A stretch of 64,000 bases of DNA from Cyanidioschyzon merolae (GCA_000091205.1 AP006500.2); one strand, 5' to 3'. Positions 27,162 to 61,168 are shown, counted from the first letter of the stretch. Notes: a model not told the origin generated them from the sequence alone. A program made the numbers and translations.

Positions 27162-28147
27162 CTACCGTTGACGCTGACTATCAAGCCAGCGCCAGATACC
27201 TGCCGCCACACTCCCGATGACGGAGTGCATGGAAGCGGAGATCGCTGCGGGCACTGCAACCTGGGGGTCTGCGAAATGTGCCTGGGCGAGCGCTGCCCCC
27301 AGACCCGAGTTCTGCATGCACACCTCAATCGCAACCGCTCGATTGATTTGCTTATCCCGGAAACGCAGAAATGATACGACGTATCCAAGAACGAGTCCAA
27401 GGCCATGTAGGAGTAAGAGTGCGAAGAAAAGTCGCAAACCACCGGTGCGAATCGCATCCACGCTTCCTGAAATGATGGAGGCATTGATGAGCACAACGCC
27501 AGCCACAGAGACTAGTGGAAACCAAGGCAATAGCCGCTGGATGACAGCTCTCGTTCGGGGTATCGCATTCAAAAGCATGCCCACTGCCAACGGTAGGAAC
27601 ACGACCTGGACCATAGACAAGAACATACCACAGGCATCAACAGGCATCATGGTTCCTGCCATCACTTTCATGAGGAGCGGTGTGAGGATTACGGCCGCTT
27701 GCGTCGTCGTTGCCGTCATGAGGACGCTAAGCGCCACGTTAGCTCCTGCCAGGTAACAGACCAGGTTCGACGCGGTGCCTCCTGGGCAAGACGACACCAG
27801 CAGCATACCAACGGCGTACGGTGTTGGTAGCCCCAGGTGCCGGGAAAGCATCCAGCCGAGCAGCGGCATGATGGAGTATTGCGCGAGCGCGCCCCAGAGC
27901 ACTACATCAGGAACACGCAAAACTGCGACAAAATCATCGACAGATAATGTCAAACCCATTGCCAACATGATGACCGACAACGTAGGAGATATGTACTCGC
28001 GTTTGAAGAAAGCGAAAACGCTGGGGCAGGTTGCCGCGGTGATGGACCCCAGAATCACGTACAGTGGAAAGAGGTTCGTCAACAGGCCGAGAACGCGTTC
28101 CGATCGCGAGGTCATCCTCAGGTGCCGGCCCTGAGTGGTCTCTCGCA
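27162..28147 (-). CDS. Bile acid:sodium symporter family (BASS/SBF, PF01758-like) transporter; core region given, and the maximal ORF extends to 28634
   Basis: About 9 TM helices carry the SBF signature blocks: LAMGLTLSVDDF, LLVSSCPGGTASN, AIEVCMQNSGLGAALA and a Gly-rich helix break. The N-terminal 160 codons of the maximal ORF are Arg/Cys-rich and could be a transit peptide or non-coding. Confidence 0.6.
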
Positions 28148-28633
28148 TAACTGGGGGTCTTTCACGCCCTGGACAAGGCGCTTGCCGGTACGCGTGCTGC
28201 CCCAGTGTTCGCCAGCTGCTGAAACCCCCACCTCTACAGCAGTCATCCCGCCCAAGTCCGCAAAGCCGCTGCGTCCGCCAGCGCTTACTTGAATCAGTTG
28301 CTGGCTGCAGGTACGAAGCAGCGCGACTTCGTCGACAGCTATGCTCCGCTGTCGTCTGCAGTACAGCCGTCTTGATGCACAAGACGAAACAGCAGCCGCC
28401 GGTGCCTCGCCAGGAACCACGACAGACCTTGTGTGAGACCATGCAAACCCCAGATCTAAAGACTCGTCCTAGCAAGGTCCTAGAGGCGTCTCGTGAGCCG
28501 CTCAGCAGAAGCTGCCGAGCTGCGCTTCTGTGGATATTGCCATTGCGGATACGTGGATGCGATATGTGGCTGCCGCGCTCGAGTTGCAGTCTACAACAGT
28601 GGGCGCTCGGCTGCTTGCAGAACAGTACCAACA

Positions 28634-29727
28634 TGGACTGGGAATGGAACGTGGTTCAAGTTCCGTTGGAGAAGTCTGTTGAAGGACAAGTGACGGCTTG
28701 GCGATGCTTGTTCTATGGGCGGCCGACCAGGCCAGAGCACGTGAGCAGCTTTGTCTGGCGATGCCTGACACAGGGACGACTGCCGACGGCACTGCTCGAA
28801 GAGGACACCGCTGCGACGCACAACGCTCAGCTGTGTGGTGCTTCGACCCAAAAGCGACAACACGACGGGAGCCATGCGATAGCTGACGCCTGCAACGGGC
28901 AGTCCGTGACGGAGCTACTGCGTTTGGTGCTGGTATTCTGGAACTTGCCGATGGGAACGCGGCGAGAGGACCTGGAAGAGGCCTGCTCGAGTGCGGGCCC
29001 AGTGCGTTGGGCCTTTATTGAGCACAGCGATAGCGCAGAGACAAAGTTTAAGACGGAGAACGTCCTCGAGAAAGAGAAGGCGTTTCGCATACGGCCAAAT
29101 AGTGCGGTCGGAGAGCCAGCGGTCGTTCGTGGGTATGTGTGTTTCGAGAGCCCAGAGGATGCACAGCGGACTCTGAACTCACCAGACGAGCTTAAGCTAT
29201 CCGCTTTATCGCGCCGGACGATTCCCAAGCTGAAACAGTTTCTTCCGGTTCAGCTGCGAGGCGCGCTGGAGGTCAATAGTTTCCCCCACTGGGCCTGGTT
29301 GCGATTCAAACATGACCACCTTGCGGATATCCGCGGCCTCGAGGCAACGTGCGATCGCATCATGGCAGCATATGAGCAACAAGTACGTAAGATACAGCGA
29401 GATCAGGAGCGGAAACGATGCTTGGTCGACGAGGATGGCTTTACGCTGGTAGTTCCGCGGACGCACAAACAGCAGCACGTGAACAACGACGACAAGCGCT
29501 CTCGTTCTGGTAATGCGAACCCGCTATATGCAGGTGCTCCGCAGAACTCGCGAGGCGAGTCAGTGATCGAAAATGTATCGGAAACGAAAGCTGCCCCGGT
29601 CGGGTTTTATCGATTCCAACGGGATGAGCTGAAGAAGCGAGAGCTCGCCGAGTTGCGGGCGCAGTTTGAGCGCGACCGACACCGCTTGCACAGCCTGCGA
29701 GCAACCCGACAAACCTTCTTGAGTTGA
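28634..29727 (+). CDS. Rrp7-like ribosomal RNA-processing protein
   Basis: The C-terminal RRP7 signature is present: DEDGFTLVVPR...VGFYRFQRDELKKRELAELRAQFERDRHRL, followed by a basic tail. The start is set at the first ATG after the divergent transporter gene, because upstream codons of the maximal ORF overlap that gene. Confidence 0.5.
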
Positions 29728-37440: not shown

Positions 37441-40400
37441 TTACAGTGCATCTAGACGGAGCACCGTAACGGACACTTGCATGCCGTCCGTGGCGTCCTC
37501 CGAGGTGACTTGTGGACTCGTGCGCGCCGCCGTCTCTGGGACCTCGGCAGCTGCTTCCGTCAGCAGGCGCTCTATGGCCTCATCGGAGAACGTCTTGGAT
37601 GCGTTCTCGTCGTCAATGCTCAGTCGCACACCGTGGCGAACGAGTCCGCGCATGGTGGCCCGCGACAGCGTCTCACGATGGGTCGCGATCCACTGGAGAA
37701 TCCGCGGTAGCGGTGCCAGATGGAGCTGGATGAACTGACAGAGCTCACTTGCGTACGGGAGCGGATGGAAACCCAGCACTTCTTCCAGATTACCGATAAG
37801 GGTCTTGGCATCTACCAGCGCCTGGCTCACGCATTGAATGTCTACACTGGTGACGGGAATCTGTGCGATGCCGTCCTGAACGGCAACAAGTACGCCAAAA
37901 ACGCAGGCGCGCCACAATGGCTCCTCGGCATGCGCCGGTAGTCCTCGGGATTCGTGCAGCATGCGCAAACGAGCCGTTATCTGGGCTACATATGGACTAG
38001 CCCGCGAAACGGAGACCGCATCCTCATTCCCGCCTGCAGAGGCTTCTCCAAGCGTTTCATGCACAGCGCCTTCTGCCGACGGTGAGACCGGGCTCTGTCC
38101 CTGGGTAATAGACTGCCACCAGGGTGCCTTTTTCTGTTTCAACTGTTGAACGACGTTGCGCGTGATCTCTGCGGTATCCACGAGCGCCGGTGCCAGGGAA
38201 CGGTACAATGCCAGTTGCAGCGCATCGGCGAGGCCACGTAGCTGGTTCGCTCTACCAAGAGCCTCGGCGACAAACGCGTTTCGCCATCGGCTTTCCGGTC
38301 GGTATGCAACCTGTGTTTGTTCCTGAAAGGTGGCCGCTGTCTCCAGAGTCAGCGCAGCGACCTGTCCTATGGTCCAGGCCGACTCCACAGCGCAACAAAA
38401 CTTGCTCAAATTGAGTTCCGACCGCGGTCGTTGGAGCGCTGTTGACGACGCTGCACTGGATCCCGGTTCATGTAGAAAGTGTGCCAAAAGTGCTCGCTGG
38501 TACGCACTCAGTGCTGGCCGCAAGCTTTCATACTTTTCCAGTTGAACGAGACTACCGCCTAGAATACCCGTTGCCATGAAGCACGGCGCGTAGACGACAC
38601 CGAGCAGGTACATCGCAAAAAGTGCGATTTGCTGAATCGCTTCCGCAAATAGACCAGCTGGGGCAACATTTGCATATTCAGATGGTGCATACAGCATCGA
38701 TGCGAGCGTGCCAATGCATTCGATCCCAAATACCGATGCGCCCGTAAATGTATAGTCGTCGGGTATAGAATAACCCTCATCACGATGCAAGCGCTCCCAG
38801 ATAATAGACAGGAGATCTTCAACGCGCAAAGAGGCTAGCTCGTGGGTAAGCACCTTCACCACGAGGCACGAATCCGGATCCGCATCTGGTACTGCATACC
38901 AGGCGCGAATCGTCTCCCAGTAAGAACGCCAAGTCTCCGGTACAAAGCGATTCTGATCGAGCTGCATCTGGTTGCGCGTGTCAGTATTTCCCAGCGACTG
39001 AACGCTGATTGCTTGCCAGTCATTGGGAGTCGCAAATATCTCCATGAAGCGCGACTCAATATCACGTTTGAACAGATCAATATAACTCTTGAGGAGAGGC
39101 TTCACGATATTCTCGTGGATCGTAGCGAGCGGCAACGTGCGCTGCTTCCTCTGTCGAGTACCACGCAGGAGGCGTTCTGCATTCAGCTCCAAACTCGATG
39201 TGCGCACTACCGAGCCGTTCGGGCTTGCAGTAACCATTGAATGCTTCCTTGGTGCAGTCGCATCGAAGCTATAGATACCAGCGGCGCGTCCATCAGCGTC
39301 TTCCGGGAAGTGATCATCGGCTGCAATGGATATCCACTGTGTCTCCAGAGCGTGCAGCACCAGTTGGGAGCGCCAAAGCTCCGCCAGCGTCACTACAGGA
39401 TAGGTATCGTGTTCAGCGACAAGCTGATTCGCCATGAAATCGCAGTCCGCGTCGAGTCGAGCTTGCAGTGCCTCCCAAACGATGCTTCGAAATCGTTTGC
39501 TGATCCTGGGGTGTTCGAAAAGCTGTCGCACTGGGTAACAGATTGCTGAGAGAAATCCAGCCCAGCAGTCTAGAAACTCCCACGGATTCCGTGGTCTCGA
39601 GGCCAGTTCCCCACCAGATGGAGCGGTGTTGCTTGGCACATGTTGCGATTTTGGCGTCCGTGGTGCCAACGCGTTGGCATGGGCGCCTGCAGCCTGCCAT
39701 ACGTTCGTAAAGCTCGCAAGCAACGGCGACGCCACCGCAGCCTCTCTTTTGGATAACTCGTTTAAAGTCGCACCGGAGGCTTGCCTCCATTGTGCGCATT
39801 CGAGCGCCCTTGCACGAATCTCGGCAAGCACATGCTCCAAGGCATATGCGAAACGCTCGGCTAGGACCAACTCAGCGCCGAGATTCTCATAGGCGTTCCA
39901 GACGGCCTGGAATACTTCCGCATCGAACTTGCAACAGAGACCCTGCACCTGCTCGAACATGCACTGAAGCGATCGAGCGGCAAGGTCCATGAACACGTCT
40001 GAGAAATCTCTAAATATTCTTCCCTTTCGAACGACAGATCCAAGTTCTCTACGGAGAAGGCTCGAACGATACAGCAGATCGAATGACTTGCAAAGACGAT
40101 TCGCTTCATCATACTGATGCAGACGCAGCGCATCTCGCACTTCGTCTAAGAGCTGCTGCATCCGTCGAATAGTTTCAAGACTCTGTACAACCGAACGCAG
40201 AAATGAACGCTTGCTTACTTTGCGTTCGAATAGCTCTTCTGATACGTGCAGTTCTTTTCTTGAGCGACGAATAAGGTTCGAGTTTTCAGAAAGCGTCCCG
40301 AGTGCTTTCGACAAAGCGTCCGACACCAAATCCAGTGCGAGCGTTCGCTGCGCAACAGCTTCCGGGCCGGCCCGCAGTCGGACGTAGCGATTACTTCCCA

Positions 40401-41076
40401 AAGCCTGCGCTTGGTAGAGATGAGCCGTGTAACAGTCCAGCTGCTCGGTTGCTCGACCTAACTCATCAATGGCTTCGGTAAGGGCGCTCAAATTGATTAT
40501 CATTTTGCCATCAGCTCGTCGTCGAGATGCACGCATTAGAGCCTCCTGCAGCAAACTCGACGGTGTAACGCTTTCAATGACTTTGAGCTCGGACGCTTTT
40601 TCGTTGGACTCCTTGGCGCCGGCAGCGGCAACGGCACGTTCCACCGTGCTCAAGGAGACGTGCAACGACTTGAGCTGACGAAAAGACAGCTTTTTCGTGC
40701 CTCTCTCCGAACTTGCTGCTTGTCGGTTGCCGTCCTCGGTCGTGTCACTGTGGCGAGGCCGTTCGGGAACGACGGCAGCCGCTGTCGCTCGGGACTGGTT
40801 TTGCCGTGCATTGTAAGCGCGGCAAGTGCTCTCGTACTCAGAATTACAGTGCGAAAACGAGCCAGTGCCTACCGTGGAGCTGCCTGAACCGCCAACGGAT
40901 CCTAACAAACGTAACTCTTTCGCCAGAGGTTCGAACGGGCGTCCCGCAATGTGAAGCTGCTCTGCTGAGAACGAGCGACCGACCCGGAGCCCCCGGGAGT
41001 GGCGTGTTTTTTCGGAGTTCCACGAACCAACGTGCTCACCGGTTTCACGGGGCCGTTCGTGAAGAGATTCCATCAA
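37441..41076 (-). CDS. Large (1211 aa) hypothetical protein, mostly alpha-helical; weak resemblance to vesicle-tethering complex subunits (Vps54/COG-like)
   Basis: This is a 3.6 kb uninterrupted ORF with non-repetitive composition and predicted amphipathic helical repeats. I recognise no diagnostic catalytic motif. Confidence 0.4.
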   Translation of the reverse strand: MMESLHERPRETGEHVGSWNSEKTRHSRGLRVGRSFSAEQLHIAGRPFEPLAKELRLLGSVGGSGSSTVGTGSFSHCNSEYESTCRAYNARQNQSRATAAAVVPERPRHSDTTEDGNRQAASSERGTKKLSFRQLKSLHVSLSTVERAVAAAGAKESNEKASELKVIESVTPSSLLQEALMRASRRRADGKMIINLSALTEAIDELGRATEQLDCYTAHLYQAQALGSNRYVRLRAGPEAVAQRTLALDLVSDALSKALGTLSENSNLIRRSRKELHVSEELFERKVSKRSFLRSVVQSLETIRRMQQLLDEVRDALRLHQYDEANRLCKSFDLLYRSSLLRRELGSVVRKGRIFRDFSDVFMDLAARSLQCMFEQVQGLCCKFDAEVFQAVWNAYENLGAELVLAERFAYALEHVLAEIRARALECAQWRQASGATLNELSKREAAVASPLLASFTNVWQAAGAHANALAPRTPKSQHVPSNTAPSGGELASRPRNPWEFLDCWAGFLSAICYPVRQLFEHPRISKRFRSIVWEALQARLDADCDFMANQLVAEHDTYPVVTLAELWRSQLVLHALETQWISIAADDHFPEDADGRAAGIYSFDATAPRKHSMVTASPNGSVVRTSSLELNAERLLRGTRQRKQRTLPLATIHENIVKPLLKSYIDLFKRDIESRFMEIFATPNDWQAISVQSLGNTDTRNQMQLDQNRFVPETWRSYWETIRAWYAVPDADPDSCLVVKVLTHELASLRVEDLLSIIWERLHRDEGYSIPDDYTFTGASVFGIECIGTLASMLYAPSEYANVAPAGLFAEAIQQIALFAMYLLGVVYAPCFMATGILGGSLVQLEKYESLRPALSAYQRALLAHFLHEPGSSAASSTALQRPRSELNLSKFCCAVESAWTIGQVAALTLETAATFQEQTQVAYRPESRWRNAFVAEALGRANQLRGLADALQLALYRSLAPALVDTAEITRNVVQQLKQKKAPWWQSITQGQSPVSPSAEGAVHETLGEASAGGNEDAVSVSRASPYVAQITARLRMLHESRGLPAHAEEPLWRACVFGVLVAVQDGIAQIPVTSVDIQCVSQALVDAKTLIGNLEEVLGFHPLPYASELCQFIQLHLAPLPRILQWIATHRETLSRATMRGLVRHGVRLSIDDENASKTFSDEAIERLLTEAAAEVPETAARTSPQVTSEDATDGMQVSVTVLRLDAL

Positions 41077-41612: not shown

Positions 41613-42542
41613 GTACGTTCTTGTCTTTGGAGCTGGAGTAGTCCCTTTTTGGATCTTCCAGCGCCCTGCTCTGTATGCTACTACGAGCCTCCGACTTTGA
41701 TCCTCTTTGAGGGCGCTCAGTTGATTGAAAAAGTTCGCGAACGCCCGCCGCTTACCGCAATATAAATTCATTCGCAAAAGAGCCCAACTGGGATTTGTAT
41801 ACTCCTCCCACAGTGCATCCCAATGAGGAACACGTACATTCATGAACTTCCGAAAAGCTTGTAAGCCCGCTCCTCGGCTCGTCACCTCGCTCAAAGCTTC
41901 CAGGTGATCCTTCATTCCTGAATTCCACGTAACAATTTTCTTCCTCACATTCATTATACCGGATTCTCGATAGTATCTCGCTCTCGAGAACCTCAATAGA
42001 CGCAAGTCTTTCTGACGTAAGTTGCCGTCAATGCCGTCTTCCCCACATTTGAGTGCGGCGATGGTAACGATATTCGTGTTCCCGGGGTCCGCGCCAACGA
42101 CCAAGTCGTTATCTTGCACTTTCTGTGTCGCAGGACCCGCCTGCTTCTCATCTTCATTCTTCGTCGCGGGCGGAGCTGGACGATCTGTCTTCAAGCGCCG
42201 ATTGTGCACACTCAAGGCTACTCCATCGGTTTCGATCATCCCAGCGAATACCTTTTGTTTGCTGACTTTGAGACGTTTGAAATCGAAGATATTCTTCCAG
42301 TACTTCTCCCGGTTTTCGCCGGAGAATCCCTCCTTGCTGACACCGAACTCGGGACTGATCTCGCTAATGATGCCGTAAAGGATTCTGGACTCGATAGTAA
42401 CAAAATGTGACTTGATGTTGCACATTGGAACCACGTTGAAGCGCTTCCCCATTAGGAACGCCTTCCGTCTCTCCCACTCTTCATTTTTTCCCTCAATCAG
42501 CTTCATCTCCGCCTTGCGCTCGAGTTCTCGACTCAGCGACAC
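41613..42542 (-). pseudogene. TnpB/Fanzor-like gene, central segment containing the RuvC-I-like motif
   Basis: The motif [19 protein letters not shown] is present, and the segment ends ...RRLVVAYRAGRWKIQKGTTPAPKTRTY. It terminates at an in-frame TAG (41610-41612) and continues in the same frame into the next segment. Confidence 0.5.
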
Positions 42543-43152
42543 GAAATACCGCAGGATAAAGGGATGCCATCCTTTTCATAATTGATACCCTTTTTTGTGG
42601 ATGCATCAGCCCCAGAACCGCACGGTGCTCTTGAATAGCCGCACAGATCACAGAAGCTTTATTCTCTCCCTCGCATGATGTCTTCTTGTGGACGAATTCC
42701 ATTTCCTGTTCATTCTTACTATCGTTCGTGATGCTATCGATGATGGCCCATATCCTTTTGCGAGAGAGGCCCGGGTACAGCGCAAAGATGAAGCCTATCA
42801 TGAAGCGTTTGAGGTTCATAGTCATATGGTTCTTCCGGTACGTGAGGTACTTCGTCGCTCCGTAGGTGTAAATATCCCGGTTACCCATGTATCGAGTACC
42901 CTCGACGCGGAATTCCACGAAATTTTCGTAGAGGGCGTGCACTGGCTCATTATCCCTCCGCGCCTGCCGTGTACCAACCATCAGGTGGCGAACGAAGGTC
43001 TTGTTGAAAATTCCTCCGGAACCTCGACTGTTTTGATTTCCGTCGCGTTGCGATACATCTCCTTCACCAAATGCATTAGCCCTTACGAAGCGTGTATAAT
43101 ACTCATGGATTACGAATCGACACGGTTTCCGATGGCTTCTCGCATCTTCTCC
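42493..43152 (-). pseudogene. TnpB/Fanzor-like gene, N-terminal segment (frame 1)
   Basis: The open frame runs from 43152 to 42493. It overlaps the next segment by 50 bp in a different frame (a frameshift or short intron). A Lys/Arg-rich putative NLS region lies further upstream in ORFs 43110..43358 and 43165..43419. Confidence 0.45.
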
Positions 43153-44423
43153 TTATACGGATCTTTAATATGTCCAAGAAGACAGGCTTTCACGACCATC
43201 TCGTCGTACTGTCGTCTTTCTTGCAGTCTTCGACGTAAGGCCTCCCCCTTTTGCCTCTTTTCCGCTTCCTTTTCCTCTCGACTTGGCACTGTTTCTTGTT
43301 TTTTTTTTCTGGCAGCCGGCGACAATTGGTCCCCATGATCGTCGACTTGATTTTTCAATTCTTTCCTTTTTAATTTTTGAATATGAACGCTCTTTGAAAG
43401 CCTCTACTATAACCAGCAAAAAATCACTTAAAAACTTTTGTTTGAGGTTTGAAACACAATCGAATTGAAAAACTATACTTTGCTACGACTTTAACGCAAA
43501 GACCACTTGTAAGTTACAGCAACGCGCTGATGATCTGGATCTCATTCCCCGTCAACGGCGACGTACACATCGTGAAAGCCTGATATGGAGGTGCGTGTAT
43601 CGACCGTGCTTAATAGAAAAGAACAAAAACAAACAATTGACTAGCAATTCGATGATATTTTCGTTCAACTCTCATGGTATATGTTAAAAGGAGGAAAAAC
43701 TTTCCATGTTGTCGAAAGCTTACGATCTAGGCGGAAGGTCCCGCGACCCTGACGCCTTTGCCGGGCTCGCGCTTGGTGCCCCCAACAATGACTGGTGCTT
43801 TGGTTAGATATGAGCAGCTCGTACACAACACACTTTATTCTGGGACTAGGAGCGGGTAGACTGCCTCTGGGCGTCGCACTGGTCGGGTTGCTCTCCTTGC
43901 ACATCGCTTCGCGCTGCTCCAAAAGGTACGTCTTTCTGCGCAGTTTGCATGCTCCGAGAATGACAATGTATCCCGACTCCGCGTCGAATGGACTACGCCT
44001 CGAGCCGACGCCCTCAGCTGGTATAGCAAAGCAGTTCTATCTCCATGCTGGATGCGCACCAGCCGTAAAAGCGCTTTGGCGGGTGCATCAAGGCAGGTAC
44101 TCGGCGTCAGAATAGAACGTACAAAAGGACCGGTACATCCGAAAGGAAGTGCAAGTGATGAAACTTGGAGGTAGGGTGCAGCATGATAATCGATTTTCCA
44201 ATTATCAATATCCGTCCCGCAATCTGGGATCATCCGTGGTCAACGTAAGCGGTTTGTCATTGGAAACAAAATCAACGCAAAAGACGCCATTGGGTTTGTG
44301 CACGCGTTTCGGGACGCCTCAGCTTTCTTGTTGTTTGTGAACAGTTTCTCTAGTATCCGGTTCTGCTTCTTTGCTTTTTTGCTGTCATCCCGCTATCTCA
44401 GAAAGTTCTGAGTCGAGCTGTGT

Positions 44424-49899: not shown

Positions 49900-52800
49900 A
49901 TGACGGGAGAGAGTGTGAGTGTGCAATACCAGCCCGACGGAGTTGCCATCATCGTTTTTTCTGCTCCTCCAGTGAATGCGCTTTCGGTGAACCTACGGCG
50001 TTTGCTGGCTTTGAACGTCGCGAACGTTGTTGCTGATCGGCGGGCGAAGGCGATCGTGCTGTATGGTGGCGAGAGCACCTTCTCGGCCGGGGCTGACGTC
50101 GGCGAGTTCCCTGAAAAGCTTGGAAGTGCGGAGAATATTATCTCTTTGGATACGGAGCCGTTCAAGACGCTGCTAGAGACTAGTCCGAAGCCGACTGTGG
50201 CCTGTATCACAGGCACAGCGCTTGGCGGAGGCCTGGAGCTCGCCCTCGCGTGCCACTTTCGCGTTGCTCTATCGGATGCAAAGCTTGGACTTCCGGAGCT
50301 CAGACTGGGCCTTATCCCCGGTCTTGGTGGTACCCAGCGTCTTCCCAGACTGATCGGCGTTGAGCCAGCACTCGATATGATTATGCACTCGCGAATCATT
50401 GACGGCGAGGAAGCGCATCGCTGCGGGCTCGTCGACCGTCTCGTTCCAGCGAGTCGTCGAGAGACGTTACTGCGAGAGGCCTGTGCTGTAGCCCTGGAAG
50501 TCGCCTCAGATCCTCAAAAGATGCCGCCACCGCTATTAACCCGAACGGACAAGCTTGGGAATGCCGACGTTGAGAAAATTCGCAGCAAGTATCTGCCGAG
50601 AGCTGTAGAAATGCGGCAGAAAACTGGTCAGATCCAGTTTGAAAGCTGTGTCCGAGCTGTCCTCGAAGGCATTGAGCGTGGTGGTGGCGATGCTGGCTGG
50701 GCACTAGAAGCGGAGCTTTTTCGACAGTGCGCGGCGTCGGAGGCATCACGAGCTCTCATTCATGTCTTTCTTGCCTCGCGAAGAACAGTGACGAATTTTA
50801 AGGCAGAGCCGCACCTTCATGAGCCTCGGACAGTTGCGGTGATCGGCGGTGGCCTCATGGGAAGCGGGATTGCAGCATGTATCCTACAAAATGGTGGACG
50901 CGTCGTCTTGAAAGAAGTCAATGAAAATGCCCTTGCTGCAGCTATACAGCGTATTGAGGCTATCTTGAGCCGCGCCAAGGTCGACACCGCGGATGCCAGG
51001 CGGCGACTTCAAGGCACGATCGAATTCGACAAAAAGCTTTTCAGTGATGTAGACCTCGTCGTCGAGGCAGCCGTCGAAAATGTACAAGCGAAGCAAGGCA
51101 TCTTTCGATCGCTGGCGGAATGCACGGGACCACACTGCATTCTGGCGACCAACACCAGCACGATCAACTTGGACTTGATCGGTGAAGCGATTCCGCAAGT
51201 CCATAAGGAAGGGCGTCTGATTGGTGCACACTTCTTCAGTCCTGCACATGTTATGCCACTCCTGGAAATTGTACGTGCGAACCGCACCAGAAACCGCGCA
51301 GTGCAGATGGTGCTTGCGTTTGCGAAACATCTGCGGAAAACACCAATCATTGTGGGCAACTGCGCCGGTTTTGCCGTGAACCGAATGTACTTCCCCCAGA
51401 CCCAAATGGCGTTCTTTCTCACTGAGTACCTCGGTATTCATCCATACGACATCGATCGTGCATGTCAAGAGGTGCTTGGTCTGCCAATGGGACCCTTCGG
51501 CCTTGCGGATCTCGTCGGTCTCGACATCTGTGATTCTGTGAACCAGGTTTTTAGCATGTCGTATCCCGAGCGAGTTTGTAGCCTCAGCATCGCGGGCAAG
51601 TTGATTGAGATGGGCAGAAAAGGTCAGAAGAGCGGTGCTGGCTTTTACCGCTACGGTGCGGATCATCGCAAACCGATCGAAGATAGGGAGATGTTGGATC
51701 CGCTCCTTGCCTCTATGACGCCGCCACCGCTGCGCGAGCCATTAACGCCGTTAGACATCGTGCAGATGATTTTCTTCCCGGTCGTCAACGAGGCCATGCG
51801 GGTTCTCGAGGAGCGTATTGCCGACAAAGCAGCTGACCTCGACGTTGCATCGGTGCTTGGCTACGGTTTTCCGGCCTATCGAGGTGGCCTGCTCTACTGG
51901 GCTCAGCATCTTCCCGGCGGGCCGCGTCTCATCCTGGAGCGCCTGCGCGAATGGGATACACGATTCGGTACGCAGTGCCCGCTATTCGCTCCGTCGTTTG
52001 CCCTCGAATGTGCGCTAAGGTCAACTGAACCTGTGCTGGAGCGGCCTCCTCGTCCTCGTTTAGCGACAGGCTCGGACGACGATATCGTGTTCGTGGCCGC
52101 TGTTCGCACCGCGATCGGAAAAGCGGGGCGCGGCCTCCTGAAGGATACGCTCCCCGAAGACATGCTTGCGCCGCTCATCGGGGCGCTCTTGGATCGATCA
52201 GCTGTGAAACCCGCCGAGGTCGGAGACGTTATCGTCGGAACCGCCCTACCTCGTGGTGATGCGGCTGCTGTGAGTTTGCGCGTCGCTGCGCTGTGTGCTG
52301 GCCTTCCTGATACCGTTCCAGTGCGGCTGGTAAATAGGCTGTGTGCGTCGGGGTTGCAGGCTATCGCTGACGCTGCCGCTGCCATTCAGCGAGGCGATTA
52401 TGGTATCGCTATAGCCGGGGGTGTGGAATCCATGTCGATGAATGCTATCCAGTTAAGTCTGGAGCGCAGAAGTCACCGCCTAGCGAGTTGCGCAGCAGCA
52501 GAGGATGCCTATCTCAGTATGGGAGACACCTCGGAAAACGTTGCAGCGCGCTTTGCGATCAGTCGAGCAGCGCAGGATCGCTTCGCAGCTTCGAGTCATG
52601 CTCGAGCGTCACGTGCATCGCTTTCGGGACGCTTCGAGCGAGAAATCCTTCCCATTTCGACACAAGTGTATCCCACCAGGAAAGCGGCGAAGCAAGCAGA
52701 CGGGAACCTCTCCACGGCGGAACGCGCGCCCGCAGTCCCACAACCGGTTGTGGCGCAACGCGATGAGGGTATTCGCTTGGGCGTCACCACTGGAGCGTTG

Positions 52801-53337
52801 GCCAAGCTCCCGCCAGTCTTCCGAAAGCAGGGTACCACTACAGCTGGGAATAGCTCCCAAGTCAGCGATGGAGCGGCACTGGTACTCTTAATGAAGCGCA
52901 GCGAGGCACGGCGGCGGGGTCTCCGGCCGCTGGGAACGTTCCGGGCCTTTGCGGTTGCAGGCGTGCCGCCAGCAATCATGGGCATAGGACCCGCGGCCGC
53001 TATTCCGAAGCTACTTTCGCAGGCTGGAGTCGAAGCTAATTTGATTGATCTATACGAAATCAATGAAGCATTTGCCTCTCAGGCGGAATACTGTGTCCAG
53101 AAACTTGGACTCAACCGAGACGTTCTCAATGTGAATGGCGGTGCAATTGCACTCGGTCATCCGTTGGGCATGTCCGGCGCTCGTCTCTGTGTGACGCTCT
53201 TGCACGAGCTTGCTATCCGGGAGGGGCGCTATGGCGTGGTCAGTATGTGTGTTGGTACCGGGATGGGAGCCGCTGCTCTACTGGAACGATGTGAAGATGA
53301 CGGTTTTGATGAGCGACGGTTGCGAGCAGCACTTTAA
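49900..53337 (+). CDS. Fatty-acid beta-oxidation multifunctional enzyme with enoyl-CoA hydratase, 3-hydroxyacyl-CoA dehydrogenase and 3-ketoacyl-CoA thiolase fused in one 1145-aa polypeptide
   Basis: The crotonase fold reads CITGTALGGGLELALACHFRVA...PELRLGLIPGLGGTQRL. The HAD Rossmann motif is VAVIGGGLMGSGIAACIL, with NTS and HFFSPAHVMPLLEIV. The thiolase carries N-terminal DIVFVAAVRTAIGKAG, the active-site Cys NRLCASGLQAI, NEAFASQ, NVNGGAIALGHPLGMSGAR and CVGTGMGAA. There is no stop or frameshift between the FadB-like and FadA-like parts. Confidence 0.8.
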   Translation: MTGESVSVQYQPDGVAIIVFSAPPVNALSVNLRRLLALNVANVVADRRAKAIVLYGGESTFSAGADVGEFPEKLGSAENIISLDTEPFKTLLETSPKPTVACITGTALGGGLELALACHFRVALSDAKLGLPELRLGLIPGLGGTQRLPRLIGVEPALDMIMHSRIIDGEEAHRCGLVDRLVPASRRETLLREACAVALEVASDPQKMPPPLLTRTDKLGNADVEKIRSKYLPRAVEMRQKTGQIQFESCVRAVLEGIERGGGDAGWALEAELFRQCAASEASRALIHVFLASRRTVTNFKAEPHLHEPRTVAVIGGGLMGSGIAACILQNGGRVVLKEVNENALAAAIQRIEAILSRAKVDTADARRRLQGTIEFDKKLFSDVDLVVEAAVENVQAKQGIFRSLAECTGPHCILATNTSTINLDLIGEAIPQVHKEGRLIGAHFFSPAHVMPLLEIVRANRTRNRAVQMVLAFAKHLRKTPIIVGNCAGFAVNRMYFPQTQMAFFLTEYLGIHPYDIDRACQEVLGLPMGPFGLADLVGLDICDSVNQVFSMSYPERVCSLSIAGKLIEMGRKGQKSGAGFYRYGADHRKPIEDREMLDPLLASMTPPPLREPLTPLDIVQMIFFPVVNEAMRVLEERIADKAADLDVASVLGYGFPAYRGGLLYWAQHLPGGPRLILERLREWDTRFGTQCPLFAPSFALECALRSTEPVLERPPRPRLATGSDDDIVFVAAVRTAIGKAGRGLLKDTLPEDMLAPLIGALLDRSAVKPAEVGDVIVGTALPRGDAAAVSLRVAALCAGLPDTVPVRLVNRLCASGLQAIADAAAAIQRGDYGIAIAGGVESMSMNAIQLSLERRSHRLASCAAAEDAYLSMGDTSENVAARFAISRAAQDRFAASSHARASRASLSGRFEREILPISTQVYPTRKAAKQADGNLSTAERAPAVPQPVVAQRDEGIRLGVTTGALAKLPPVFRKQGTTTAGNSSQVSDGAALVLLMKRSEARRRGLRPLGTFRAFAVAGVPPAIMGIGPAAAIPKLLSQAGVEANLIDLYEINEAFASQAEYCVQKLGLNRDVLNVNGGAIALGHPLGMSGARLCVTLLHELAIREGRYGVVSMCVGTGMGAAALLERCEDDGFDERRLRAAL

Positions 53338-58071: not shown

Positions 58072-59808
58072 CTAGAGTTCTCGTGCTCCGAGCAGTAACG
58101 CTCGATCGTCTATGGCAACCACTGCATCTTCTGTCTGTTGTTGTTGTTGGTGCATCCAGCGGGTCATAATCGGATTGGTCTCGGTGGTGGTCTCGTCCTC
58201 GGGACCCGTATCATGACCAGGTACCGTGTCGGGTGCATCCTCCGCACTTTTGATCAAACCGGACAGGTATGTTGCGCTATCCAACGTTGCAGCTAAAGGA
58301 AATTCGCTAAGATCGGCATTACACTGGGCTGATTGCGTTTCTGGCCGCGACAGCGAAGCCGTCTCTTGCGTCTCCTCGAGGGCACCGTACCCGTCGATGC
58401 TGCGCTCCCTATCGGAATCTGACGCTCCATAGGCGAATCGCAAAATCCGTCCAAAAAACAATCCCTGGACGAGAATCGACCAGACGACACCGATATAGGT
58501 CAGCATGAAGAGCAAATGATTGAAGCTCCTGGTCACCGCCTGTCCAGAAGCTTCCAACGCACCGGGAGCAGCGAGTGCCAGGGCGATAGATACTCCACCG
58601 CGCAAACCTGACCAAATGATTATCGCTACAGAATCGATTCTATATACCGCACGACGGTGCCGAGGTTCGTGAACAGCATCCCCGAACAACCGCCAACGGC
58701 GACCTCGTGACCAGTAGCGCCAGCAGCGGCTGCTCAACATCACCGCCGCCAGACTGAGCACCACCGAGGCCGCTCGAGCGATCATCGTGATAAGAATCGT
58801 GATGCAAGCTACAAGCAGCGTGCTTTTCCAGGATGAGGTCGGGCTCCAAACAACCGCCGAGAGACCTATGAGAAGAAAGAGCATTCCGTTAAGTGTTTCA
58901 TCGATGAATTTCCAGATGTGGAGCAATCGCTTCTCACCTCGTCGAGTAAAGGCTGTACCGCGTCCGCGGCTACTCATGACAATGCCAGCAAACACAGCTG
59001 CCAACGGTACGGATGCGTGTACATAGGAGCAAAAAACTTCCAAATTCAATACCAGCACAACTGAGGTCGTCACCTCCAGTAACGCATCCTCCACCATTCC
59101 GATAACATGACAGGCAAGCAGACCGAATGCGAAACCAATAGCGACACCGCCGAGGGCCTCTACTAGAAACACCCGCAGGACTCGAAAAACTGCACTGCAG
59201 TAAGTGCAGGGTTCTGTTGATTTCCCCGACCGAATTAGAACGACGTAGAGAATGACGCTCACAGCGTCGTTGAAGAGCGACTCGCCCAGGATGGCAAAGC
59301 GGGTAGCATCTGGAACTTGGCGGCGATACTTTTTCAGGATACTCATTACCGCAACTGGATCCGTGGGCGAAATAATCGCCCCAAACAGCAGTGCCTCACG
59401 GAAACTGAGCGCATAGAGGCTGGCCAGCCCACCGTAGGTCAGGACGCCTACCAAGAGCGCAGACAGGAGCGTCGAGAGTACCGAGAGCGCGAACACCGTT
59501 ACCCGAATGCGCCGGAACTCTCGCACATCAACGTGCAGTGCAGTCGCAAACAACAGAAATCCCAGGAAATAATCCAGTAAAAGTTCTGGGAATTCGTAGA
59601 TCACTTCAGTAAAACGATCCACTTCCTGCTGCAGGGGCGGCACCACCAGCGCCAGCTGCTTCAACACAAACGAGAGCACAAGTGCAACCAGCGAATTCAG
59701 CACTACCTGCGGTATTTGGAAGACTCGCTCGTTGACCAGTCGAAGGATCCACGTTGTGGTGAGTAGAAGATCCAGAATGACGACCGCTGTAGCGATCATC
59801 AGGAACAA
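58072..59808 (-). CDS. Na+/H+ exchanger (CPA1/NhaP-NHE family)
   Basis: About 11 TM helices are present. The NHE signature is LLFGAIISPTDPVAVMSILK, with ESLFNDAVSVILY and the GLRGGVSIALAL helix. A hydrophilic C-terminal tail follows. Confidence 0.7.
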   Translation of the reverse strand: MFLMIATAVVILDLLLTTTWILRLVNERVFQIPQVVLNSLVALVLSFVLKQLALVVPPLQQEVDRFTEVIYEFPELLLDYFLGFLLFATALHVDVREFRRIRVTVFALSVLSTLLSALLVGVLTYGGLASLYALSFREALLFGAIISPTDPVAVMSILKKYRRQVPDATRFAILGESLFNDAVSVILYVVLIRSGKSTEPCTYCSAVFRVLRVFLVEALGGVAIGFAFGLLACHVIGMVEDALLEVTTSVVLVLNLEVFCSYVHASVPLAAVFAGIVMSSRGRGTAFTRRGEKRLLHIWKFIDETLNGMLFLLIGLSAVVWSPTSSWKSTLLVACITILITMIARAASVVLSLAAVMLSSRCWRYWSRGRRWRLFGDAVHEPRHRRAVYRIDSVAIIIWSGLRGGVSIALALAAPGALEASGQAVTRSFNHLLFMLTYIGVVWSILVQGLFFGRILRFAYGASDSDRERSIDGYGALEETQETASLSRPETQSAQCNADLSEFPLAATLDSATYLSGLIKSAEDAPDTVPGHDTGPEDETTTETNPIMTRWMHQQQQQTEDAVVAIDDRALLLGAREL

Positions 59809-60322
59809 CGCTTTCTAAGCGCTTGCATGAGGCGGTGCAGGCCGAAAACGCTACCAACAGTCTACCATGTGGATCATCTGCGGTTCGCGTCAGAATCGTT
59901 TTGGAGTTCACGTGCCTAACTGTAGGCTTGACGCGTTTTACGACTAGAATATTTTTCAAAAAGGAGCGATTATCGACAAGGACTAAACAGATTTTTCACA
60001 TGAGTACCAGCAACCTTCCTAGGAAGTGTTCCAAGCTGGCACGCATGTCGTGATCGACCAGGAGATAACAGACTTGATTAGACAAGTGACGGCGTTCGTT
60101 CAAGGAAGTGTTGCAAGCTAGTTGGCAGGTGCCAGCACTGGACACAGCTCAAGCTTTTTCGTACTAGCCTGTAAAACCGCCACGAGCAGTCGCCCGTGCA
60201 ATACGAGGTACTGCAGAAAGCGCTCCGAGGTCCCTGAAAAAGCACAGCTGGCGTAGAGTCGCAAGACGTGTTCGAATGCAAACCTTTTGCCGTTTGGAGC
60301 ACTTTCTGTGGAAACGCACGCC

Positions 60323-61168
60323 ATGGGTGCCGAAGACTCTTCACTTTGCGCGGAGCTCTATCGATTTCTGAGGCTGCTGGTTCACAATCTACTCTACGCT
60401 GCGAAGGTGTACCCCGAGCAGTACTTTACTCAGCAAATAGCGTTCAACTTGACGACTCGAGTCGCCACCGTGGACTGCCTCGAGCGCTACATCACTGAGC
60501 ACATCGCGTTGCTCCACCGCGGCCAACGCCCTATAGGTACTGTCCATGAGATGATTGTTTCCATTCAAGAGCTTCCAGAACAACAGGATATGAACCCGAC
60601 GGTCGAATCTGTGGCGAAGCAGACCTCTCAGAATGGAGCAGAGGCGCAGCTGGCATCAAATACGGATCCCTGTCATTCGATGCTCGAGCTTGTTCGTCTT
60701 CGAGTGCTTCTCCCAGATCTTGAGGCACTCGAGGCCCTTGAAGCAACACCAGATAAGTGGAAGCTTCTCGAAGCCTATCGGTCCCGTTTTCGCCTCGTGC
60801 TCTGTCGAGTATTGACGTATCCGTGGCCACCACTCGCGGCACCAGTTTCGCTTGAAACATGGCGTCGAACATTCCGCCTCTATTTTCGTCTTAGTATGCC
60901 AGAGAAACAAGACGATACTGGTCTGATTCTAGAGACGCTTCGAGAACCTATCATATCAGAACGGGAGAGCGCACCGTCCACCAGCGAGAAAGAGCCCGCG
61001 AATGACGCTCGCGCTCTTCTTTATGCCAGTCAGAGGTTTGGCTTTCCGAGGGGCGTTTCCGTCCCTTTATGTGATGACGCAATAACAACACTCGACGGTG
61101 CTTCGAGCTTTCCTCCGAAACTGTCGCTTTTTGTTTTCATTGAAGAGCCACCCTTGGTGCCGATCTGA
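60323..61168 (+). CDS. HORMA-domain protein (Rev7/MAD2-like)
   Basis: SLCAELYRFLRLLVHNLLYAAKVYPEQYFTQQIAFNLTTRVATVDCLERYITEHIALL parallels the Rev7/Mad2 HORMA N-terminal block (...LILYVREVYP..F......NVPV.M...P.L..YI). The start is taken at the ATG of MGAEDS..., and the maximal ORF begins 36 nt upstream. Confidence 0.5.
   Translation: MGAEDSSLCAELYRFLRLLVHNLLYAAKVYPEQYFTQQIAFNLTTRVATVDCLERYITEHIALLHRGQRPIGTVHEMIVSIQELPEQQDMNPTVESVAKQTSQNGAEAQLASNTDPCHSMLELVRLRVLLPDLEALEALEATPDKWKLLEAYRSRFRLVLCRVLTYPWPPLAAPVSLETWRRTFRLYFRLSMPEKQDDTGLILETLREPIISERESAPSTSEKEPANDARALLYASQRFGFPRGVSVPLCDDAITTLDGASSFPPKLSLFVFIEEPPLVPI

Follow-up and report, generated by a model that had tools for sequence, protein, structure and literature searches.

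A single open reading frame in Cyanidioschyzon merolae joins an MFP and a type-I thiolase of predicted peroxisomal ancestry

The window analysed here is a 64,000-nucleotide stretch of nuclear DNA from the red alga Cyanidioschyzon merolae. At positions 49,900 to 53,337 on the + strand, it contains a single uninterrupted open reading frame that begins with ATG and comprises 1145 codons and a TAA stop within one exon. The translated product is identical at 1145 of 1145 residues to the C. merolae 10D protein XP_005538607.1/BAM82571.1 (UniProt M1UWH1), the product of locus CMR380C, and the same protein is encoded in the 1.25-Mb C. merolae 10D chromosome record. From its length we estimate a mass of roughly 124 kDa. 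Upstream of the ATG, an in-frame stop is reached at 17 codons with no alternative start in between, so that an N-terminal presequence is impossible in this protein. An earlier note, made from the raw sequence, had described a 1145-residue polypeptide without stop or frameshift in which all three beta-oxidation modules are fused, and this description is accurate in both respects. The note had also doubted whether such a fusion is known at all. However, the GenBank record already bears the name fusion protein, and Mori et al. 2016 (Front Plant Sci 7:958, PMC4928187) described this very protein, with no difference from ours, as ECH, HACDH and KAT in one chain with the same five Pfam domains, reported the same architecture in Porphyridium purpureum, and presented a three-activity single chain as a red-algal feature. 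The fusion is therefore annotated, published and not new, and the reading from raw sequence, while correct, is a rediscovery; what the present analysis adds are comparisons of selection, phylogenetic breadth and targeting signals.

A Pfam scan placed five domains along the chain, all well over their gathering scores and in the order of the red-algal fused MFPs: ECH_1 (135 bits), 3HCDH_N (159), 3HCDH (90), Thiolase_N (221) and Thiolase_C (152). The enoyl-CoA hydratase/isomerase (crotonase) domain covers residues 13-206 (49,936 to 50,517, + strand, as for all features below; ECH_1 3e-39, ECH_2 4e-24). It is followed by the Rossmann NAD domain, 3HCDH_N, at residues 311-487 (50,830 to 51,360; 1.5e-46) and by the C-terminal helical domains of the dehydrogenase at residues 490-705 (51,367 to 52,014), which include Asn494 and consist of Pfam 3HCDH (490-585; 1.2e-25) and a second helical repeat typical of MFE1/MFP2. 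The inter-module linker, residues 706-727 (RSTEPVLERPPRPRLATGSDDD; 52,015 to 52,080), is a coil in the AF2 model and stands in place of both the PTS1 tail of an MFP and the PTS2 presequence of a thiolase; across red algae its length differs by only a few residues and a PRP motif is kept. The thiolase N-terminal domain, with the nucleophile Cys815, occupies residues 729-1001 (52,084 to 52,902; Thiolase_N 1.9e-65) and contains a loop insertion at about residues 925-947 that is common to red algae in the alignment and of low confidence in the AF2 model. The thiolase C-terminal domain spans residues 1009-1130 (52,924 to 53,289; Thiolase_C 5.8e-45), and the chain closes with a disordered tail, residues 1131-1145 (53,290 to 53,334; block pLDDT 56 then 40), that ends in -LRAAL. 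The motifs by which the thiolase had been recognised, NRLCASGLQAI, GHPLGMSGAR and CVGTGMGAA, are present in the translation at residues 811-821, 1086-1095 and 1117-1125.

Across 34 fused homologues from distant lineages, 13 catalytic or cofactor residues are invariant. These are Glu113 (GGGLE) and Glu133 (LPEL) of the crotonase; G316, G318 and G321 of the dehydrogenase GxGxxG motif, together with S420, H444, E456 and N494; and C815, N1055 (NEAF), H1087 (GHPLG) and C1117 (CVGTG) of the thiolase. The three activities are predicted ones, and a module might in principle serve as a scaffold without catalytic function, which would leave the protein short of true trifunctionality. However, the invariance of the residues checked in all three modules, and a minimum of pN (0.11) that falls in the thiolase half, make this very unlikely.

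Several lines of evidence address whether the junction near 52.0 kb, for which assembly support had been sought, is genuine. The 3435-nt coding sequence recurs in three independent JGI metagenome assemblies, where it shows 8 substitutions but no indels; the exact window protein had no match in the contig index, and these contigs were reached through P0001, a 3-residue variant of it. In comparisons with orthologues of 79% and 64% identity, the reading frame is preserved throughout, linker included, although pS is near saturation at 0.68-0.79; pN amounts to 0.11-0.28 across the ECH, HAD and thiolase modules and to 0.31-0.38 in the linker, which thus evolves faster than the domains while remaining in frame. 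Both halves are under strong purifying selection. About 60 red-algal proteins of 1100-1200 aa share the architecture, several of them derived from transcriptomes, and full-length fused proteins from transcriptomes include those of Porphyridium (MMETSP), Gracilaria changii, Heterolobosea BB2 and others. Together, the metagenome contigs, the frame kept at synonymous saturation and the transcriptome-derived fused proteins exclude misassembly and a hidden intron. An artefact could take the form of a chimeric junction, a sequencing frameshift that masks a stop, or an intron missed by annotation that separates two genes. It might seem to be suggested by Cyanidiococcus yangmingshanensis (GCA_013995675.1), whose annotation splits the locus into an MFP gene (752 aa) and a gene for a thiolase fragment (300 aa). 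However, this split results from a single frameshift in the C-terminal region of the MFP, with both frames matching CMR380C at 74-81% identity, and, set against the evidence above, it leaves an artefact with virtually no probability. The frameshift is most simply an indel in the GCA_013995675.1 assembly, although it could be a real mutation; a true gene fission in Cyanidiococcus is unlikely, the split being one frameshift in one assembly.

The two halves were also compared with enzymes of known structure. Among PDB sequences, the N-terminal 700 residues are best matched by plant peroxisomal MFP2 (2wtb; E about 1e-150), as against 1e-95 for FadB and 1e-77 for HADHA, and an end-to-end alignment to AtMFP2 covers residues 9-691 at ~43% identity (E 4e-150). 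The C-terminal 420 residues are best matched by plant peroxisomal KAT2 (2wu9; E about 1e-122), as against 1e-106 for ACAA1 and 8e-68 for FadA (1wdk_C), with residues 726-1140 aligning to KAT2 residues 29-426 at ~53% identity (E 6e-122). In E-value, the FadB, FadA and HADHA matches thus fall short of those to MFP2 and KAT2 by 45-73 orders of magnitude, and HADHB does not appear among the best 60 PDB sequences. No bacterial FadB-FadA fusion occurs in the best 150 of 1.84 billion representatives, where one would be expected at ~550 bits, near the top of the ranking. We know of no TFE complex formed by peroxisomal MFP2/KAT-type enzymes. These results bear on the FadB-like framing of the earlier note and on its description of the protein as a fusion of TFE alpha and beta subunits, whether FadB with FadA or HADHA with HADHB. 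Such a fusion would have the same three activities, and the N-terminal 700 residues do share their fold with FadB and HADHA, but the far higher scores of MFP2, KAT2 and ACAA1 and the absence of a bacterial fusion from the best matches render it extremely improbable; a bacterial context is also at odds with the nuclear red-algal origin of the DNA. The comparisons instead indicate that the halves are a peroxisome-type MFP and a peroxisome-type thiolase, for which "alpha-beta fusion" is the wrong homology.

The homologue search, covering the related taxa in which fusion had been questioned, found the single chain conserved throughout red algae, with proteins at 47-79% identity over 97-100% of the length in Cyanidium, Galdieria, Porphyridium, Chondrus, Pyropia and Hildenbrandia. 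A separate search with the thiolase half used a word-based prefilter and returned mostly stand-alone thiolases, omitting most fused proteins, and supplied comparison sequences only. In a neighbour-joining tree, the thiolase halves from red algae group together as a single clade (bootstrap 99%), and a Na+/H+ exchanger downstream of the fused gene is conserved in four Cyanidiales loci, which supports orthology. Judged from these sequences, the fusion is monophyletic across red algae, with a single origin there. The expectation of a taxonomically restricted fusion was borne out, in that beyond red algae we found patchy copies, in Andalucia godoyi (ANDGO_06968), Heterolobosea sp. BB2, Balamuthia mandrillaris and Cyanophora paradoxa (tig00000692_g3274); the searchable literature yielded no relevant account of the fusion outside red algae. 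These non-red proteins have the same domain order, with 1111-1218 aa and 41-46% identity over ~98% of the query, but they end at the natural thiolase end without a PTS1 tail. Four non-red proteins, those of Andalucia, a close relative of Andalucia, Heterolobosea BB2 and Balamuthia, are extended at the N-terminus by 40-60 residues that include a PTS2 nonapeptide of the thiolase type (for example RREVLLSHL, RQTVLLGHV and RRELVLSHL). Neighbour-joining backbone support for the relationship between red and non-red fusions is only 6-40%.

Thiolase is a classic PTS2 cargo, and its position within the fused chain raises the question of import. According to the literature, PEX7 and PTS2 are absent from C. 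merolae and red algae. CMR380C lacks the cleavable N-terminal PTS2 presequence of type-I thiolases, and neither its first 60 residues nor the junction contains a PTS2-like motif (R-[LVIQ]-x5-[HQ]-[LA]), the sole loose match, at residue 813, being the active-site loop RLCASGLQA. An internal PTS2 at the junction was rejected for this reason, as was a mitochondrial presequence, since no N-terminal presequence is possible. At the other end, the C-terminus -AAL falls outside the PTS1 pattern [SAC]-[KRH]-[LMI], although AAL is listed as a possible PTS1 derivative (Gonzalez 2011). Other red-algal orthologues end in SRL, AKL, SKL, AKM, ARL or GKL, so that a canonical PTS1 is found on nearly all of them, including the cyanidiophyte Galdieria (-SRL); the GKL ends of Pyropia and relatives lie just outside the pattern. 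The terminal tripeptide is AAL or AML in Cyanidioschyzon, in its relative at 79% identity and in Cyanidium, and a basic residue at -4 and the terminal Leu are retained in the tail in three Cyanidiales lineages.

The compartment of the fused enzyme in C. merolae is a question already raised in the literature. Mori et al. 2016 (PMC4928187) found that GFP with the C-terminal peptide of CMR380C was not peroxisomal and that the protein was absent from the isolated-peroxisome proteome, so the peroxisomal part of our account may not apply to C. merolae. Together with the -AAL end and the lack of both a PTS2 and a possible presequence, these results favour a cytosolic enzyme, which would either run beta-oxidation in the cytosol, the suggestion of Mori et al., or catalyse the reverse, condensing reactions. 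On the other hand, nearly all other red-algal orthologues carry a canonical PTS1, the partner acyl-CoA oxidase carries one as well, the tails of three Cyanidiales lineages keep their basic -4 residue and terminal Leu, and a weak or context-dependent PTS1 can escape reporters built on short C-terminal peptides. We consider a cytosolic location a serious contender, with chances somewhat below even. This alternative touches only on where the enzyme resides and leaves the main account of the gene intact.

That main account, in which we have high confidence as the best explanation of the whole, is that the intron-less CMR380C encodes an MFE1/plant MFP2-type MFP and, connected to it through a linker of 22 residues, a type-I 3-ketoacyl-CoA thiolase (KAT2/ACAA1/POT1 type). 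MFPs of this type have enoyl-CoA hydratase/isomerase and (3S)-hydroxyacyl-CoA dehydrogenase activities, and CMR380C would carry out steps 2-4 of non-mitochondrial beta-oxidation, downstream of the acyl-CoA oxidase CMK115C. Step 4 need not depend on the fused thiolase, since C. merolae also possesses CMA042C and CME087C, which are stand-alone thiolases. The AF2 monomer model of the fused protein (pLDDT 88, pTM 0.87) superposes on 2wtb with a target-normalised TM of 0.91 over 722 columns, and shows the linker as a confidently placed coil (block pLDDT 85-90) and the C-terminal tail as disordered and accessible. A Foldseek search against the PDB found no solved chain covering both halves, with a longest alignment of ~750 columns and a query-normalised TM of at most 0.57. 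Thiolases are obligate dimers, which argues for dimerisation through the thiolase domain. Such a dimer, from what is known of the family, would resemble the alpha2-beta2 trifunctional complexes but with the parts covalently linked, and intermediates would be handed over locally within it. By analogy, CMR380C probably works like TFE complexes, with a thiolase dimer as core and two flanking hydratase/dehydrogenase modules; substrate channelling is plausible on the same grounds, while a 1:1 stoichiometry follows trivially from the single chain. The protein may also offer a compact three-step module for engineering beta-oxidation or reverse beta-oxidation.

The targeting signals suggest how the fusion may have evolved. 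It would have removed both the C-terminal PTS1 of the MFP and the N-terminal PTS2 of the thiolase, after which most red algae would have regained import through a new PTS1 tail behind the thiolase; in Cyanidioschyzon and Cyanidium this tail would have degenerated to -R-A-[AM]-L, with the peroxisome or the cytosol as the compartment. The protein bears on how thiolase stays importable in lineages without PEX7. The copies in Glaucophyta, Jakobida, Heterolobosea and Amoebozoa raise the possibility of a fusion older than red algae, whose ancestral form would have entered peroxisomes by an N-terminal PTS2 of the thiolase type. Red algae would then have lost PEX7, shed this PTS2 and gained a C-terminal PTS1 tail on the thiolase, which later decayed to -AAL/-AML in Cyanidioschyzon and Cyanidium. 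We offer this history tentatively and think it rather doubtful. If true, it would be a concrete case of what Kechasov et al. 2020 called a "yet unknown mechanism of PTS2-to-PTS1 cargo transition", and the decay to -AAL/-AML may have shifted steps 2-4 of beta-oxidation to the cytosol; a PTS2-to-PTS1 swap on a fused protein was not found described in the searchable literature.

Compared with known systems, CMR380C has the same catalytic residues as plant MFP2/AIM1 (2wtb) and rat MFE1 (3zw8), including the two glutamates of the crotonase, and it shares with the MFE1/MFP2 type the GxGxxG Rossmann NAD domain, the Ser/His/Glu/Asn set and the duplicated helical domain. Plant MFP2, however, is a separate polypeptide whose own PTS1 directly follows the helical domain, whereas in CMR380C this signal is missing and the linker and thiolase replace that tail. 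With KAT2 (2wu9), human ACAA1 (2iik) and yeast POT1 (1afw) it shares the Cys-Asn-His-Cys set, but KAT2 is free-standing with a cleavable N-terminal PTS2 presequence, at the position of which CMR380C has the MFP module, and CMR380C also has the red-algal loop insertion and an added C-terminal tail. The TFE complexes (P. fragi FadBA, 1wdk; M. tuberculosis, 4b3h; human HADHA/HADHB, 5zqz/6dv2) combine the same three consecutive activities, but they consist of separate, non-covalently associated alpha and beta subunits from other subfamilies, as the PDB matches indicate, whereas CMR380C is a single open reading frame of peroxisomal MFP and KAT lineages. It may thus be viewed as a covalent, peroxisome-lineage counterpart of the TFE complexes, conserved since the red-algal common ancestor, and as a natural experiment.

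The open reading frame at 49900-53337 (+), locus CMR380C, runs without interruption from an ATG through 1145 codons to a TAA stop, and its translation contains the motifs NRLCASGLQAI, GHPLGMSGAR and CVGTGMGAA. Five Pfam domains, all encoded on the + strand, score far above their gathering scores: ECH_1 (residues 13-206), 3HCDH_N (311-487), 3HCDH (490-585), Thiolase_N (729-1001) and Thiolase_C (1009-1130). Reading frame, translation and domain content thus confirm as written the uninterrupted hydratase-dehydrogenase-thiolase fusion that the earlier note had read from the sequence. Its doubt as to whether such a fusion was known at all was misplaced, as CMR380C is already annotated in GenBank as a fusion protein and has been described as one chain with three activities (Mori et al. 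2016, PMC4928187). Our translation is identical at 1145/1145 residues to the C. merolae 10D protein XP_005538607.1/BAM82571.1 (UniProt M1UWH1), encoded at that locus on a 1.25-Mb chromosome record, and the finding of the fused gene is therefore a rediscovery.

The surrounding window has a G+C content of about 55%, long ORFs lying far apart on both strands, and housekeeping products typical of eukaryotes, including a GT8 glycosyltransferase, an ERMP1-like M28 peptidase, an Ulp1 protease, RRP7, Gar1/Naf1, a DEAD-box helicase and a Na+/H+ exchanger. G+C dips to 0.48 at 42001-44000, where GC and AT skew are both negative. Two ORFs, at 37441-41076 (-; 1211 aa) and 60287-61168 (+; 293 aa), have no Pfam match at E<=1e-5. 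An SBF-family transporter ORF (27162-28634, -) and the RRP7-domain ORF (28135-29727, +) overlap by ~500 bp on opposite strands, probably through over-extended starts rather than true gene overlap, since the + ORF starts at GTG.

The junction between the two halves, for which the earlier note had wanted read or assembly support, is intact in three independent JGI metagenome assemblies, where the 3435-nt coding sequence recurs with no indels and 8 substitutions (5 synonymous and 3 non-synonymous). The frame is also kept in two syntenic orthologues, each a single ORF followed by an oppositely oriented Na+/H+ exchanger gene: that of a Cyanidiales relative at 79% identity (1186 aa; Logan, JGI and NCBI contigs) and that of Cyanidium caldarium at 64% identity (1142 aa). 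Compared with these orthologues, CMR380C has essentially saturated synonymous sites (pS 0.68-0.79), with pN at 0.11-0.28 across the hydratase, dehydrogenase and thiolase modules; the reading frame has thus been maintained by selection and not by recency. The linker region (27 analysed codons, residues 701-727) evolves faster (pN 0.31-0.38), and despite this its length and a PRP motif are conserved. Full-length fused proteins derived from transcriptomes are available from Porphyridium (MMETSP), Gracilaria changii, Heterolobosea BB2 and others, so that the evidence for single mRNAs comes from relatives of C. merolae.

The sole apparent exception is Cyanidiococcus yangmingshanensis (VWRR01000016.1, locus L001, 4001-7436), where the annotation has two genes, for an MFP of 752 aa and a thiolase fragment of 300 aa. 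While this could be read as gene fission, tblastn places the split at one frameshift near L001 6045-6142, inside the C-terminal helices of the MFP, and both frames still match CMR380C at 74-81% identity, so that an indel error in that assembly is the more probable cause. The exchanger gene follows the fused gene, on the other strand, in C. merolae (58072-59808, -), Cyanidiococcus (L001 8717-10030), the 79% relative (locus L005, 7683-9356) and Cyanidium (locus L007, 6580-8610), and this local synteny is conserved across the Cyanidiales.

An alignment covering 34 fused proteins shows 13 catalytic or cofactor residues to be invariant: E113 and E133 in the crotonase, G316, G318 and G321 in the Rossmann domain, S420, H444, E456 and N494 in the dehydrogenase, and C815, N1055, H1087 and C1117 in the thiolase. 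An AlphaFold2 model of the monomer, run with this alignment, has a mean pLDDT of 88.2 and a pTM of 0.87. The linker (706-728), whose structure the earlier note had proposed to predict, is coil without regular secondary structure, yet its block means are 85-90, and this high confidence suggests that it is pinned to the domains and not floppy. Thiolases are as a rule obligate dimers, and we therefore infer that the protein may dimerise through its thiolase domain into a covalent alpha2-beta2-like particle. In red-algal thiolase halves a hairpin of the loop domain carries a shared insertion, which varies in length (about 8-30 residues); this insertion is missing from non-red fused proteins and Arabidopsis KAT2, and in C. 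merolae (52672-52740; residues about 925-947) it is modelled with low confidence.

Homologues in related taxa, as the earlier note had proposed to look for, are fused too. A collection of 5.8 billion proteins yielded ~60 clusters (1019-1201 aa) with all five domains at 45-79% identity over 90-100% of the query. Named red-algal carriers are Cyanidiophyceae (Cyanidium, Galdieria phlegrea), Porphyridium, Compsopogon, Timspurckia, Pyropia, Hildenbrandia, Chondrus, Agarophyton, Gracilaria and Purpureofilum, and the same domain order occurs in the non-red Cyanophora paradoxa, Andalucia godoyi, Heterolobosea sp. BB2, Balamuthia mandrillaris and a few other sequences. An exhaustive HMMER scan covered 1.84 billion 50%-identity representatives; its best 150 matches held only 3 full-length fused clusters plus junction-spanning fragments, the remainder being MFP/FadB proteins of ~700 aa or thiolases of ~400 aa. 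No bacterial FadB-FadA fusion was among these 150, where one would be expected near the top at ~550 bits. In a neighbour-joining tree of thiolase halves (100 bootstraps), the red-algal fused copies form one group with 99% bootstrap, which gives a single origin within Rhodophyta. Backbone support of 6-40% does not separate red fused, non-red fused and stand-alone eukaryotic thiolases, and outside Rhodophyta the tree favours neither one ancient fusion nor repeated fusions. A different beta-oxidation fusion among the representatives in the HMMER scan, the 827-aa protein P0227, has the reverse order and lacks a crotonase domain (Thiolase_N/Thiolase_C at residues 2-423, then 3HCDH_N and 3HCDH at 438-712). 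Separately, the stand-alone Myxococcota thiolases P0398 and P0447 are 51-53% identical to the thiolase half, on par with plant KAT2; their similarity recalls a myxococcal contribution to eukaryotic beta-oxidation, which has reportedly been proposed.

The earlier note had suggested a search for targeting signals. The C. merolae protein cannot carry a presequence of mitochondrial, plastid or PTS2 type, because an in-frame stop precedes the ATG by 17 codons, the crotonase fold begins at residue 5 and the protein has no PTS2-like motif. Red-algal orthologues run 7-30 residues past the natural thiolase end and carry PTS1-like termini (SRL, SKL, AKL, ARL, AKM, SKM, SRM, AKI or GKL); the C-terminus is -RAAL in C. 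merolae and the 79% relative, and -RAML in Cyanidium. In the C. merolae model the final 15 residues form a disordered stretch with block means of 56 and 40, as would be expected of an exposed targeting tail. Non-red fused proteins end at the thiolase terminus, and four have a thiolase-type PTS2 in an N-terminal extension (RREVLLSHL, RREVLLGHL, RQTVLLGHV, RRELVLSHL), with a similar RAQIVLRHL seen by eye in the protein P0077. Together with the literature on the lack of PEX7 and PTS2 cargo in C. merolae and red algae, this pattern suggests that red algae may keep thiolase importable via a PTS1 on the fused chain. Among possible PTS1 derivatives, Gonzalez et al. 2011 (PMC3178647) include a C. merolae thiolase with an "AAL" end, which is probably the CMR380C product, as the ends match. 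GFP carrying the CMR380C C-terminal peptide was not peroxisomal in C. merolae, the protein was missing from the isolated-peroxisome proteome, and cytosolic beta-oxidation was proposed (Mori et al., PMC4928187); the enzyme may be peroxisomal or cytosolic in this species. The remaining interest lies in the wider patchy eukaryotic distribution of the fusion and in the PTS2-to-PTS1-to-degenerate-signal series, neither of which we found described in the searched literature.

The earlier note had taken the protein for an alpha-beta fusion of the trifunctional enzyme. Residues 9-691 match Arabidopsis peroxisomal MFP2 (2wtb) end to end (E 4e-150), with far weaker matches to FadB of Ralstonia, Pseudomonas and E. 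coli (about 1e-95 to 1e-99), rat peroxisomal MFE1 (1e-93) and human HADHA (1e-77). For the N-terminal part, the Foldseek matches in PDB were likewise MFP2 (target-normalised TM 0.91), MFE1 and FadB; no solved chain spanned both halves. Residues 726-1140 match residues 29-426 of Arabidopsis peroxisomal KAT2 (E 6e-122), the alignment beginning directly after the PTS2 presequence of KAT2; human ACAA1 (2.5e-106) and yeast POT1 (4e-86) follow, the beta subunit FadA (1wdk_C) falls to 8e-68, and the best 60 PDB matches include no HADHB chain. A fusion of trifunctional-enzyme alpha and beta subunits is contradicted by the much weaker scores of FadB, HADHA and FadA. The fusion thus stands as real, conserved and restricted; its supposed FadB/FadA-like origin does not, and the match scores point instead to a joining of the peroxisomal MFP lineage with the peroxisomal thiolase lineage of KAT2.
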